DNA from: Ginglymostoma cirratum
Taxonomy: Eukaryota
Reading direction: 5' to 3'
DNA: 64,000 nt
NCBI GenBank assembly: GCA_024137785.1
Contig: JAHRHZ010000032.1
Coordinates: forward strand, 5,024,149-5,088,148
The position numbers and the translations under genes were made by a program. A model generated the notes under the pieces. That model was not told the DNA's origin. It was given only the letters and a program-made list of their open reading frames with translations, and made no database searches. This document shows, one piece after another, positions 10,289-63,545 of this stretch (position 1 is its first letter; each line of letters starts with the position of its first letter).

Positions 10289-11270
10289 AGATAAAAGGTA
10301 CTGCAGATGCTGGAGAATCCGAGATAACAAGCATGGGGCTGGATGAGCACAGCAGGTCAAGCAGCATCATAGGAGCAGGAAAACTCGACGTTTCGGGCCT
10401 AAACCCTTCATCAGAAATGGGGGAGGGGAAGAGGGTTCTGAAATAAATAGGGAGAGAGGGGGAGGCGGATAGAAGATGGATAGAGGAGAGGATAGGTGGA
10501 GAGGAGGCAGACAAGTCGAAGAGGCGGGGATGGAGCCAGNNNNNNNNNNNNNNNNNNNNNNNNNNNNNNNNNNNNNNNNNNNNNNNNNNNNNNNNNNNNN
10601 NNNNNNNNNNNNNNNNNNNNNNNNNNNNNNNNNNNNNNNNNNNNNNNNNNNNNNNNNNNNNNNNNNNNNNNNNNNNNNNNNNNNNNNNNNNNNNNNNNNN
10701 NNNNNNNNNNNNNNNNNNNNNNNNNNNNNNNNNNNNNNNNNNNNNNNNNNNNNNNNNNNNNNNNNNNNNNNNNNNNNNNNNNNNNNNNNNNNNNNNNNNN
10801 NNNNNNNNNNNNNNNNNNNNNNNNNNNNNNNNNNNNNNNNNNNNNNNNNNNNNNNNNNNNNNNNNNNNNNNNNNNNNNNNNNNNNNNNNNNNNNNNNNNN
10901 NNNNNNNNNNNNNNNNNNNNNNNNNNNNNNNNNNNNNNNCCCCAAGCCACACCCCCATCTCCTATCTGCTAACATCATCCCGCCCCCTTGACCTGTCCGT
11001 CCTCCCTGGACTGACCTATCTCCTCCCTACCCCCCTACCTACGCTCACCTTTACTGGCTCCATCCCCGCCTCTTCGACTTGTCTGCCTCCTCTCCACCTG
11101 TCCTCTCCTCTATCCATCTTCTATCCGCCTCCCCCTCTCTCCCTATTTATTTCAGAACCCTCTTCCCCTCCCCCATTTCTGATGAAGGGTTTAGGCCCGA
11201 AACGTCGAGTTTTCCTGCTCCTATGATGCTGCTTGACCTGCTGTGCTCATCCAGCCCCATGCTTGTTATC
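10289..11270. mobile_element. Young Penelope-like fold-back insertion spanning an assembly gap
   Basis: Arms ~10323-10539 and ~11054-11270 are near-identical reverse complements. TTGTTATCAACATGCCTAG is repeated directly at 10270-10288 and 11263-11281. Confidence 0.85.
10540..10939. other. Assembly gap (400 N)
   Basis: Run of N bases. Confidence 1.
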
Positions 11271-11754
11271 AACATGCCTAGTCTACCACCTGCCATTAAC
11301 TGCCTTTTAAATAACAGAAAATAATTTTAAAACACTATACAGAACTAATGGCAAAATATATTATCCTCGTACCCAAAACAACCAACTTCACTTCAAGAAC
11401 ATCTTCAAAAAACCAGCAAATGGACATATTAGCAGTAGCTTCCAATTGTGATTAATTCAGTTTGGAGACAGGGCCAGATCTAGCATTCTTTTAAAAAAAA
11501 CTAGATTTGATTATTACTGAATAGAATTTGCAGTTATATCTACAATCTTTTATTTTGATTTCATCTCCTGCACTCGTCTTACGGATGTTGGGTGAACTGT
11601 ACGGAAAACACCAAAACATAACCTCCAGGCCCACGACTAACATTTTGGTTTTGCACCTTACCCAGGCAAACAATTTCAAACAAAAGCACATTAACAGCAT
11701 CCGTGAGAGTCTGCATGGAACCAAGGGATGGTAACAGCCTGAGGCACTGTTCAT

Positions 11755-12450
11755 GTTCAGAAATCACACAACACCAAGTTATAGTCCAACAAGTTTATTT
11801 GAAGACACAAGCTTTCACGGCCTTGCTCCTTCTTCATGTGTTGGTGAGAGAAGTGGTATCAGACACAGAATTTATAAGTAAAAGATCAAAGGATCACAGC
11901 ACTGATGAGGATGTATTAAACAAACCTAAGACGCTATTAAATCTTTAATGAGTTAGAAGGTTTTAATTGATTAATATGTAAATGTAAATCCCTGAATTCC
12001 TTTCAAGTCACTGCCCTGAGAGAACTAATAGTTTTATCAGTGTGACGAAGACGTGACATTTTAGGCCAGACAATGCATGTTAGGTGTGAGGCCTTGTTTA
12101 GAATCTGTTTGTATTTTGTTTGGAGTCAGACTGGTGTTATTTCGAAAGTAGGAATTTATGAAAAGCCATATAGACTGACTGTCTATAAATTTTGCCTTTT
12201 TTGAACAAAATATAATGTATCCGCAAATACAAATTCACCCCATAGATTTACATGTGTGTATGTGTGAGGGAAAGAGTGACAGTGAGTGCATGAGGGAGGT
12301 AGAGAGAGAGTGAGTGGATGCGTGTGAGGTGGAGGGGAGAGCGAGAGAGTGTGCGCCCGCGCGCGCACGCATGCGTGTGTGTGTGTGTGTGAGCGAGAGA
12401 GAGAGAGAGAGACAGACAGTGTGTGTGTTGGCTGTCAATGCTTGGTGTCA
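11755..12450 (-). mobile_element. Penelope-like 3' end/pLTR (second family) with internal GC/GT/GA microsatellite
   Basis: The terminus cagaaatcacacaacaccaagttatagtccaaca is shared with the 19268-19430 fold-back. Degenerate hammerhead-like core at ~11808-11838; microsatellite at ~12340-12430. Confidence 0.65.
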
Positions 12451-13149
12451 GCAAATGTAGGTAATTGTTTGGGGGCAGAATAGGAATCCCTTCCTTGTTT
12501 GAAGCATTCTAGTTGCCTCATTTAAATCATGGCATGGCATGCAAAGTTGGGAATGCCTCTGGCACCAAACAAAACACAGTACAAATGTGACTTTTAGTGC
12601 ATTTACAGTCAGAAATGGTTCTGTTGCAGCACACACGTTTAGCAGAAACAACACAATACAAATAGTCTCTGAACAGCACCTGTGCATTGTAGTGAGGTAC
12701 CTCCCACAAACAAGCAGTCATATACACTCTGAGTTAAAATAATAATTAGCAATAGTCTAAACATAACATTGCAGTGATCAGTCTTGAAGCAGACCCAAAA
12801 CTCTCTAACCTCTTTTGGCTGTAGGTTTTCAGTCAGATTTCAATCCACCTGCGAATAGGGTTAGAGTCAGGGCTCCTTATGGGAACATAGAGACTGGAGC
12901 AAGCCATTCACCTGGCAGAACCTGCCCTGCCACTCGATATGATCATGACTAATCAAAAACTTCAATGTCACACACCCCATTGGTAATGAATTAATCATGT
13001 CAATTTTAGATCAGAAACCATTACGGAAATTATACTAAAATAACTGGGAGGGATGAGGACCTGTAGTTTACGAAGTGACAACATGCATGGATTTAGGAGG
13101 TGAACATTCTGCTCAACAAATGTTTTGACATATTAAGATAACATAAATA

Positions 13150-14230
13150 AACCAAGGCAATTCAAGTTCCTACGTTATAGCGTACTTCAACTGTCCCGAA
13201 GTCTTTGACAAAGTTCTACATGAAAAATACTAATTAAATAAAATCTTTGAACACTTAACGATAGGATACAAGAGTAGGTAAGGAATCAGATAACGAAAAG
13301 GAAATGTTAGTTGCGAACATTGCAACTTAATCTGTTGCACCCAAATATTTTTCCAAAAAGCTTGCAGCAGAGTACAGAATGCGAAACTTGACTAAAATGT
13401 TGAGCTGTCAGCTATCACTGGTGACGTACTGTGGTGGATTGAGAACCGAGTGAACACCTACTACAGGAAGAGGTTAGATAATCTTGGATCTACTTAGAGA
13501 GTGATCATAACAATGTTTCATTAGGACCATTGCTAATTATCATTTTAACTCAATAGGCTAGGCTAGATATAAGCTTGGGGGAATGATCCTCAAGTTTGGA
13601 GATGATAGTAAGATTTATGCAATAGTTAAGGCTGTAAATAATCCTTTCAAATGGATCTAGATGAGTGGCAAATTGGGCTCTTAACTGGCAATTGGTGTTT
13701 AAATTACAAAATGCAATGTTATTCCCACGGGCAATGCTGGATAAGTATTAATGTGTGAGTACTGAATATATTCAGGAGAAATACTGAAGCTGGCTGAGAA
13801 AGAATTTGGGCATTCCAGTGCATAAATTGCTTTGGCTTCTTGACAAAAGACTTGAATTAAGTGCTATTGAGTGAACACGATGTTAAAACATACTTATGGG
13901 ACAGTGTACTATCTTCCTCACATGAGGCCTATGTGAAGATATTAGTTTTGGTTTCCCAAAGTGAGAGCTTTGTCAGTTTTTGGTTGATGGGATATGACAA
14001 GATGTCATCTCCTAGACTAGATTTGATCATCTAAAAGATTGGGGGGAGGGGGCAATGTCCATTCACATTTAAGGCAATTGAAAAAGATATTTCTACACTT
14101 TTAAGATGAACTATTTATTCTTAAAATCGGGTTCTGTGCCTTTCCCAGAAGATGGCAAGGCTCTTGAATGAAATGAACAATATATACATTGTGATGTACA
14201 ACTCATTGCAACTGCATGGATGGGAAGGTT
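13150..14230 (+). mobile_element. Highly decayed CR1 RT region
   Basis: Remnant motifs ctttgacaaagttctacatg (FDKVxH), ctcaagtttggagatgatagtaag (KFADDTK-like) and tggcaattggtgtttaa..aaatgcaatgtt (WQM.FN..KC). Confidence 0.55.
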
Positions 14231-62043: not shown

Positions 62044-62706
62044 GGTATTCCAACAACAACCAAGAAAACTCCAAAGATTCACCTGCCTTTGAGAGTGAAG
62101 GTATTTTACCTCATTTCAGTCATAAACATTTCACCCTTTGTCCTTTAATTGTGCCCCTGTGTTTTTGAATCCCCAACCAGGATGAAACAGCGTCTTAGCA
62201 CTGACTCTATGAAACTCCCTTCAGAATCGTGCATCTGAATGAAAACATTCCAGTGACTCTAGGCCCAATACGCTCTACCTCTCAGTACTGGACAAATTCC
62301 TCAGCTTAGGAACCAATTTAGTGAATTTACTGATGTACCATTTTCAATGCAAGGATGTCTTTATGTAAATCTACTCAACAAAACTGCAAAGCACTCCAAA
62401 TTGTTCTCATCCAAAGCCCTTCATAATTGCAGAACAATTTCTTTATTCTTTTGCTCCAAACCAGCTGAAATAAAGGCCAACATGCCATTTGCTTTCCTAA
62501 TTGTTTGTTGTACTGAATGTTAATTTTCTGCATTTCTTGTACAAGCACAAATAAGTCTTAGCATTAACATTTACCAAGTTTCACACCTTTAAAAAAAATC
62601 TGCTTTTCTATTCTTCCTACCAAAATAAATAACTTCACACTTCTCACATTATACTCCAACTGCCATCTGTTAGCCATCATGTAACCTTTTGATACATGTT
62701 TGCAGC

Positions 62707-63375
62707 TTTAAAGTTTTAGCAAAGATTTGTAGCTCGGGTTGTGGGTATGGTTGTCGACTTGCTCGCCGAGCTGGCTTGTTTTTGTTCAGAAATTTCGTCG
62801 CCATGCTAGGTAACATCATCAGTGAAGCCTCCGATGAAGCGATGTTATTCTACTCCACTTGGAATTTATACTGTCTGGTCCGTTATGGTGAGTACTGTCA
62901 TTTCCATTTTTTTTCAGTATGGATTTGTACGTGGTGTCCAATTCTATATGTTCGTTGACTGCATTATGGGTTGAAGACCATGCCTCTAGGAATTCCAGTG
63001 CATGCCTATGTTTGGCTTGGGCTACAATGGCCACGTTGTCCCACTTGCACTCGGACAATGAAGGCCATCAGTTTAACTGAGACAATGTAACCATAGTAGC
63101 CCAAGCAAACATAGACGTGCGCAGGAATTTCTAAAGGCATGGTTCTCAATCCATAATGCAATCAACAAACCAATAAAATCGGACCCAATATACAAACCCA
63201 TACAGAACAAAACCAGAAATGACACTACTCACCGTAACGGATCAGACAATATAAATTCCAAGCGGAGTAGAACAACTTTGCTTCGTCGGAGGCCTCATTG
63301 ATGATGTTACCTAGCATGGTGATGAAACGTCTGAATGAAAACAAGCCAGCTCGGCGAGCAAGTCAACAACCTCAG
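62707..63375. mobile_element. Penelope-like fold-back (GIY-YIG C-terminus and pLTR on both arms)
   Basis: Minus arm encodes WDNVAIVAQAKHRHALEFLEAWSSTHNAVNEHIELD; the plus arm (~63050-63372) is its diverged reverse complement. TSD ATGTTTGCAGC at 62696-62706 and 63376-63386. Confidence 0.88.
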
Positions 63376-63391
63376 ATGTTTGCAGCATCTT

Positions 63392-63545
63392 TCAGAATCC
63401 CCTTCCCCTCCCCCATTTCTGAAGAAGGGTCTTGACCCGAAACGTCAGTTTTCCTGCTCCTCTGATGCTGCTTGGCCTGCTATGTTCATCTAGCTCTACA
63501 CCTTGTTATCTCAGATTCTCCAGCACCGGCAGTTCCGACTATCTC
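63392..63545 (+). mobile_element. Penelope pLTR mini-copy with 15-bp TSD and intact hammerhead-like core
   Basis: TGTTTGCAGCATCTT at 63377-63391 and 63546-63560. Core CTGAAGA-A-GGGTCTTGACCC-GAAAC-GTC. Confidence 0.85.

Follow-up and report, generated by a model that had tools for sequence, protein, structure and literature searches.

Short hammerhead-bearing copies of Penelope-like elements in Ginglymostoma cirratum as possible run-off products with a fixed 5' stop

We analysed a 64-kb stretch of the Ginglymostoma cirratum genome (4.36 Gb), hereafter the window (contig JAHRHZ010000032.1; G000:C32:5024149-5088148 in our notation), in which minimal type I hammerhead ribozymes recur in short repeats. 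On sequence grounds, these repeats are the pseudo-long terminal repeats (pLTRs) of Penelope-like retrotransposons (PLEs) belonging to at least five families (A to E). Their shortest forms, copies of about 100 and 135 bp that we call stubs, are probably dead-end run-off copies of the front of the autonomous RNA, a reading that we favour with some reserve. The elements and the ribozyme are of known kinds, and the value of the copies lies in the natural record that they keep of the insertion reaction; the Penelope cycle is, to our knowledge, still unresolved. By extrapolation, hundreds of thousands of copies point to two rules, namely that the 5' stop is fixed and linked to the promoter, and that each hairpin has a single tailed arm. 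In a literature search that covered few subscription journals and not Repbase, we found no paper whose subject was shark PLE hammerheads or a fixed 5' stop in PLE copies.

Ends of the copies and a putative promoter

Positions in the pLTR are counted from the first C of the CTGA box (position 0), with the predicted cut after +27. The random genome sample comprised 154 loci of 10 kb, 71 of which were all N, leaving 786,182 readable bases. It contained 98 family A arms, and after removal of the 19 that were censored by N or by the locus edge, 79 mappable 5' ends remained. Of these ends, 28 lay at -8..+1, 30 lay downstream of this stretch (+2 and beyond), and 21 were scattered between -9 and about -2000. 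More than half of the uncensored copies reaching +1 (28/49) stopped at -8..+1. Per nucleotide at risk, the rate of 5' ends was 6.3% at -8..+1 versus 0.17% upstream and 0.60% downstream; it exceeded the upstream rate 37-fold (Poisson p ~6e-34) and the rate at +2..+62 by a factor of 10.5. The scattered ends of the long copies are what purely random 5' truncation would leave, but the pile-up makes such an origin of the short copies hardly credible. An alignment artefact is also opposed by the unique flanks of the short copies and by target duplications at their boundary. Thus, as the sequence-only reading of the window had held, the short copies do not look like random truncations, and their ends are not spread uniformly along the element. 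Only eight 5' ends lay at +27..+34, a place that is confounded with an AAGCTT palindrome.

The sequence shared by stubs fades between -3 and -6. Counts of exact cores across the genome accord with the pile-up, as the 14 nucleotides upstream were kept by 508/2587 and 4613/11785 exact cores of two subfamily patterns, the loss being partly due to mutation. In position-ordered samples of these two subfamilies, from which loci adjoining N were omitted (2/30 and 4/30), short copies made up 19/28 and 7/26 of the usable copies. Furthermore, short copies accounted for 31 of 36 random copies in family B, 4 of 10 in family C, all 10 pattern-picked copies of subfamily E1, and 4 of 21 arms in family D. The 3' ends of family A are bimodal, lying at +89..+101 and +121..+130 (about +94 and +128, 35 nt apart). 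In 23 of the 24 head-to-head pairs, one arm was short and the other tailed. In the exceptional pair (L130) the short arm had been over-extended by the aligner, and BLAST ends it at +98. Runs of about 400 N occupy the centres of several head-to-head insertions (window 10540-10939; L083:7636-8035; L121:1145-1545). Perfect hairpins may break the assembly, and young hairpin copies could be undercounted or misjoined.

A TATA-like box stands at -35 in the long copies of families A, B and C. About 31 nt below it, families A and B have an initiator-like motif whose A is at -4, and 31 nt is the usual spacing between a TATA box and an initiator. The box lies at -39 in subfamily E2 of family E, where E1 stubs share sequence back to about -9. 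In family D it lies at -48; none of the 21 arms stops at -5..0, and the four shortest stop at about -8, -9, -16 and -26. The starts seem to shift upstream where the TATA box lies further up, as in families E and D. The short copies themselves have no upstream TATA-like box and would presumably not be re-expressed on their own.

We propose that a TATA/initiator promoter in the pLTR would start the RNA at about -4. Given the TATA-initiator spacing and the shifted starts in families E and D, the 5' stop of the stubs would correspond to the 5' end of this RNA. A transcript from the upstream pLTR would hold the priming sites twice. The element protein might nick both target strands and prime at +94 and +128. 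Synthesis primed on the 5' leader would then run off at the RNA start after 100 or 135 nt and leave a stub, priming on the downstream pLTR would produce ordinary 5'-truncated long copies, and two cDNAs joined by microhomology would produce hairpins. Because stubs span the GUC site, their template would have been uncleaved. In a more specific version, a dimeric enzyme would act in a fixed order on the uncleaved leader, at +94 on one strand and at +128 on the other, with run-off at the TATA-defined start; we give this version an even chance. If it is true, one step resembling strong-stop synthesis would account for stubs, hairpins and the one-sided tail, and PLE transcription starts would be readable from DNA.

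Several of these steps have counterparts in the Poseidon element of Anolis carolinensis, PAc (Frangieh et al. 2024, PMC11167929), which has two internal start sites of reverse transcription about 35 nt apart downstream of its hammerhead. According to the accessible text of that report, PAc in vitro cuts and extends both strands, uses uncleaved RNA as template, and has its tail defined by the start sites. PAc differs in clade and sequence, and a fixed 5' stop is not discussed in that text. As far as the available portions of the papers go, the one-sided tail has been described qualitatively (PMC3846280, PMC8557442), and head-to-head junctions have been attributed to self-priming on an antisense template (PMC3846280).

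On the other hand, a number of observations tell against a run-off at the RNA end. A test for a cap-derived G was negative, with G at 10 of 22 non-C bases for an expected proportion of 0.39 (p=0.35). The pile-up in families A to C also falls at the 5' edge of stem I, and in family A at a T-run where microhomology is available. A perfect initiator match at -4 is missing from family C, and family D has no strong pile-up (17/21 arms are long). The samples of families D and E are small, and the comparison in family E crosses subfamilies. Because families A, B and C are homologous, the spacing common to them does not count as independent evidence. A full-length copy in which the junction between the 5' pLTR and the open reading frame is intact was not recovered, the longest common body being 2.6 kb. 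Strict asymmetry is not predicted by PAc, whose start of reverse transcription in vitro is the same on both strands in the available account (PMC11167929). Lastly, the RNA start near -4 is read from DNA alone; a higher depth over the pLTR end among contigs of presumed RNA type was set aside.

The stubs could instead be abortive autonomous copies, in which reverse transcriptase stalled or was resolved at the hammerhead edge or at T-run microhomology and not at the RNA end, an alternative that we consider possible but rather unlikely. Stem I is 3-4 bp long in families A, B and C, and its 5' edge coincides with the stop at -5..-3; the missing excess of cap-derived G fits this alternative, and the accessible report on PAc raises the possibility that this region is bound and folded by the protein (PMC11167929). 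Family D, however, has a short stem I directly before the core, yet none of its 21 arms stops at -5..0, and E stubs share sequence to about -9 but their stem I ends at -4. Further, the predicted monomer fold is weak (-9.6 kcal/mol), and the TATA spacing would have to be a coincidence. Stalling at a G-quadruplex was dropped because family B has the same stop without a C-tract. Cleavage followed by a template jump was also considered. A duplicated-core pattern had 143 matches genome-wide, many of them inverted arms or chance flanks; among the 100 listed of the 143, true preceding cores ended mainly at +28..+36 by eye. The pattern was not taken as a signature of cleavage because these ends lie near TTTC microhomology and are not sharp at the GUC.

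Short copies and retrozymes

The sequence-only reading had suggested that the short copies form a non-autonomous, retrozyme-like family mobilised by Penelope machinery. Fixed ends, target duplications of 9-17 bp on many stubs and the existence of non-autonomous PLE derivatives in the available parts of PMC8557442 and bioRxiv 10.64898/2026.07.22.740005 would suit an independent family moved in trans, whether retrozyme-like or SINE-like (SINE, short interspersed element). In subfamily E1 (L301-L310), moreover, the 10 pattern-picked copies were all short, and the few loci collected contained no long E1 copy. For family A, by contrast, the comparison of short and long copies largely refutes this proposal, and overall we regard it as improbable.

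No diagnostic site separated short from long random family A copies among 80 sites (best p=0.08), and their net divergence was -0.002 (permutation p=0.85; p=0.47 and 0.30 within the two subfamily samples). On a tree of 63 rows and 95 columns, which has little resolution and omits rows shorter than 75 nt, the short and long labels changed 20 times versus 21.3 when shuffled, and the starred clades mixed both forms. Each family A subfamily with several copies includes short and long forms, so that neither a lineage apart from the autonomous element nor a subfamily-specific clustering of short copies was found in family A. Retrozyme units would end at the cleavage site, but the main 5' peak lies some 30 nt upstream of the GUC; the missing TATA-like box also speaks against independence.

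The arrangement of the copies is also unlike that of retrozymes. Genome-wide, exact head-to-tail junctions from +94 to the start numbered 22, versus 14,372 exact cores from two patterns alone. A survey of the neighbours of 106 arms found 24 head-to-head pairs and one near-direct pair; hairpin junctions varied from copy to copy. Among family A copies in the window, no head-to-tail units with complete hammerheads were found. In the accessible literature (bioRxiv 10.64898/2026.07.22.740005; PMC7229834), animal non-LTR retrozymes are defined by tandem units. They share with the present copies a type I hammerhead, a relationship to PLE pLTRs, short length and lack of coding capacity, and they have been reported in one chondrichthyan genome. 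As described there, they form head-to-tail arrays with mainly canonical hammerheads and circular RNAs, whereas the copies described here are solitary or head-to-head, carry minimal hammerheads and have no lineage of their own. Short hammerhead monomers in vertebrate genomes should thus not be called retrozymes without a test for lineage and tandem arrangement.

A few arrays were nonetheless noted. Five tandem 35-bp units that consist solely of the hammerhead core region at G000:C87:27750059-27750225 form a rare minisatellite born from a pLTR. Paired head-to-tail junctions about 100 bp apart at C204:669449-669578 and C264:25669326-25669453 of the same assembly imply short stub trimers, and these two are the best local candidates for retrozyme-like arrays.

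Parent elements and their hammerheads

The Penelope origin of the copies, which had been recognised before, is supported by family A, whose copies run upstream into sequence coding for reverse transcriptase (RT) and a GIY-YIG endonuclease (EN). The 30 best genomic matches to the copy at 29.9 kb share a common 3' end and extend upstream to graded lengths. Six extended family A loci have a common body of 1.6-2.6 kb, all six with broken frames. An RT domain lies on the same element as the family A pLTR (RVT_1, E 1.4e-6 and 2.1e-6, slightly below the curated cutoff), and a GIY-YIG endonuclease at the C-terminus was matched in L091 (PF01541, 23.9 bits; cutoff 22.6). A CX4CxxC linker stands between RT and EN in families A and C, and the GIY-YIG remnant of family C in the window is 49% identical to the endonuclease region of family A. 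At L320, body sequence of family A begins immediately after a family C core, an arrangement that is a chimera or a nested insertion.

These features suggest EN-bearing (EN+) PLEs of the Neptune type, a placement based on the linker motif and not on an RT tree. In the available text of PMC8557442, a CX2-5CxxC linker is common to Neptune and Nematis. That paper and PMC3846280, so far as accessible, describe for Neptune-type elements the same order of RT, CX4CxxC linker and C-terminal GIY-YIG, together with 5' truncation, an inverted 5' copy, a 30-40-bp tail at one end and target duplications of about 10 bp. In our copies, likewise, the 30-40-bp tail is optional, and inverted 5' copies, 5' truncation and target duplications were found. 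TATA and initiator-like pLTR motifs have been seen in rotifer elements (PMC3846280). Unlike in these descriptions, more than half of the core-bearing family A copies here end at one point before the ribozyme, and the one-tail rule is obeyed by almost all pairs.

The repeats show the features of minimal type I hammerheads, namely CUGANGA, a bulged base, a G-C first pair of stem II, GAAA, the palindromic 15.2-16.2 and NUH. In the predicted dimer, pairing runs through the palindrome. They agree with the PLE hammerheads of Cervera and De la Pena (2014, PMC4209133) in the core boxes, the bulged base before stem II, the G10.1-C11.1 pair, the palindromic 15.2-16.2 without helix III and the short helix I. 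The accessible text of that study also reports many families per genome and mainly single motifs, which are ascribed to truncated elements. In contrast to it, stem II here has 5-6 bp, and that text neither names sharks nor maps the ends of copies. The earlier claim that stem II varies while keeping its pairing holds between families, where two-sided changes occur at stem II pairs 2-4 and in stem I; for example, pair 2 is G-C in families A, B and E, A-T in C and T-A in D. It fails within family A, where changes are one-sided (T-G/T-A, CpG decay) or lie in the loop. These stem-pair counts come from motif-selected copies and are biased towards the motif. They indicate that selection acts on the autonomous lineages and not on individual stubs, the core being intact in 20 of 56 random family A copies (8/29 short, 12/27 long).

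Copies and other features of the window

A strict scan of the window for the core gave 7 matches (6 family cores and 1 chance-like) versus a mean of 0.145 in 200 shuffles, and a relaxed scan gave 11 versus 0-2 in 10 shuffles. An Rfam search of the window returned no hammerhead family at E<=5; its MIR408 match is the hairpin at 45.6 kb. Most of what the sequence-only reading had listed was recovered, including four intact cores, the decay of GTC to ATC at 52621 and 60923, the loss of stem II near 43006 and the start of the shortest copies (52618 and 60920) 3 nt before the core (Table 1). All four intact cores sit in copies that reach from 30 to at least 239 nt upstream, and the two short-start copies have damaged cores. 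Among the proposed eroded relatives, those at 27805, 45600 and 54720 belong to family B and those at 47625 and 60865 to family C. The match at 33708 is confined to the core, and the motif at 7645 had no BLAST match among the collected loci, so its family membership is unsupported. Families D and E and the copies at 37210 and 44683 had not been listed.

The copies had been described as a dense population inside IGSF3 introns. The window is not enriched, as its 8 family A arms over 64 kb and the 98 of the random sample each correspond to 125 arms per Mb. If that sample is representative, this extrapolates to about 5e5 family A arms genome-wide. The intronic setting was overstated as well. A host gene IGSF3 is plausible, since the Atlas cluster carrying Ig_IgSF3 scored 0.93 for the immunoglobulin (Ig) exon, which also resembles IGSF3; this is the only such exon found. 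A PDB search with the exon matched generic antibody V domains alone, and the contigs aligned to it revealed no upstream exon.

Table 1 Hammerhead-bearing copies and the host exon, in positions of the window
Positions	Strand	Feature	Remarks
7638..7665	-	Core-like motif, unsupported as family member	
10287..10539	-	Tailed pLTR arm of family A (3' end +128), intact core 10387-10414, 5' end in N run	Left arm of head-to-head insertion
10940..11270	+	Tailless pLTR arm of family A (3' end +92), intact core 11179-11206	Right arm of the same insertion
11748..11890	-	Family E copy, TATA box at -39, eroded hammerhead	
15786..16181	-	Reading frame with Ig V-set exon of host gene (IGSF3-like)	Context
19254..19444	.	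Family E head-to-head hairpin	One arm begins ~7 nt ahead of its core
27735..28317	-	Family B longer copy, damaged core from 27832, TATA-like box at -35	
29861..30112	-	Family A 5'-truncated copy (-121..+130), intact core 29964-29991	~9-bp target duplication
33697..33732	+	Eroded core resembling family A	Match around core only
37210..37400	+	Eroded family B copy, part of core lost	
42909..43119	+	Family A copy (-97..+128)	15-nt deletion takes out stem II
44683..44770	+	Eroded family A stub (+6..+94)	
45535..45708	.	Family B head-to-head hairpin, joint inside hammerhead	11-bp imperfect duplication
46428..46606	-	Family C inverted arm, damaged core	
46904..47740	+	Family C long arm: GIY-YIG remnant 46904-47374, TATA-like box at -35, damaged core 47625, tail	
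52618..52714	+	Short-start family A stub (-3..+94), GTC>ATC	Target duplication not evident
54720..54791	+	Eroded family B stub	
60802..60899	-	Short-start family C stub, core at 60895	Adjoins the 60920 insertion
60920..61016	+	Short-start family A stub (-3..+94), GTC>ATC	15-bp target duplication
62749..63371	.	Family D head-to-head insertion, arms 62749-63014 and 63106-63371	Cores 62822 (-) and 63298 (+)
63388..63547	+	Family A copy (-30..+129), intact core 63419-63446	15-bp target duplication

The cores at 10384 and 11176 belong to a single head-to-head insertion, one in each arm; its duplicated flank measures 19 bp and its centre consists of 400 N. The first 8 nt of this flank, at 10270-10288 and 11263-11281, equal the +94 end of the element, and the insertion suggests target-template microhomology at priming. 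At 60898-61032, the 5' side of the family A stub has a few extra bases that resemble its own 3' end inverted, and the target duplication of this stub adjoins the start of the neighbouring family C stub. In the longer family B copy, the end of the upstream frame resembles, by eye, an endonuclease C-terminus motif.

Outside the hammerhead repeats, a 272-bp inverted repeat of 96% identity and decayed reading frames without a Pfam match were noted at 53480-54273, 61130-62110 and 16950-17420; these frames resemble 3' ends of CR1-type long interspersed elements. A partial U2 small nuclear RNA-like sequence lies at 20524-20662 (+) (E 0.011, below gathering). A tRNA-like match at 8306-8378 (+) scored above the Rfam gathering threshold (34.8 bits) and is probably a pseudogene or the head of a SINE.

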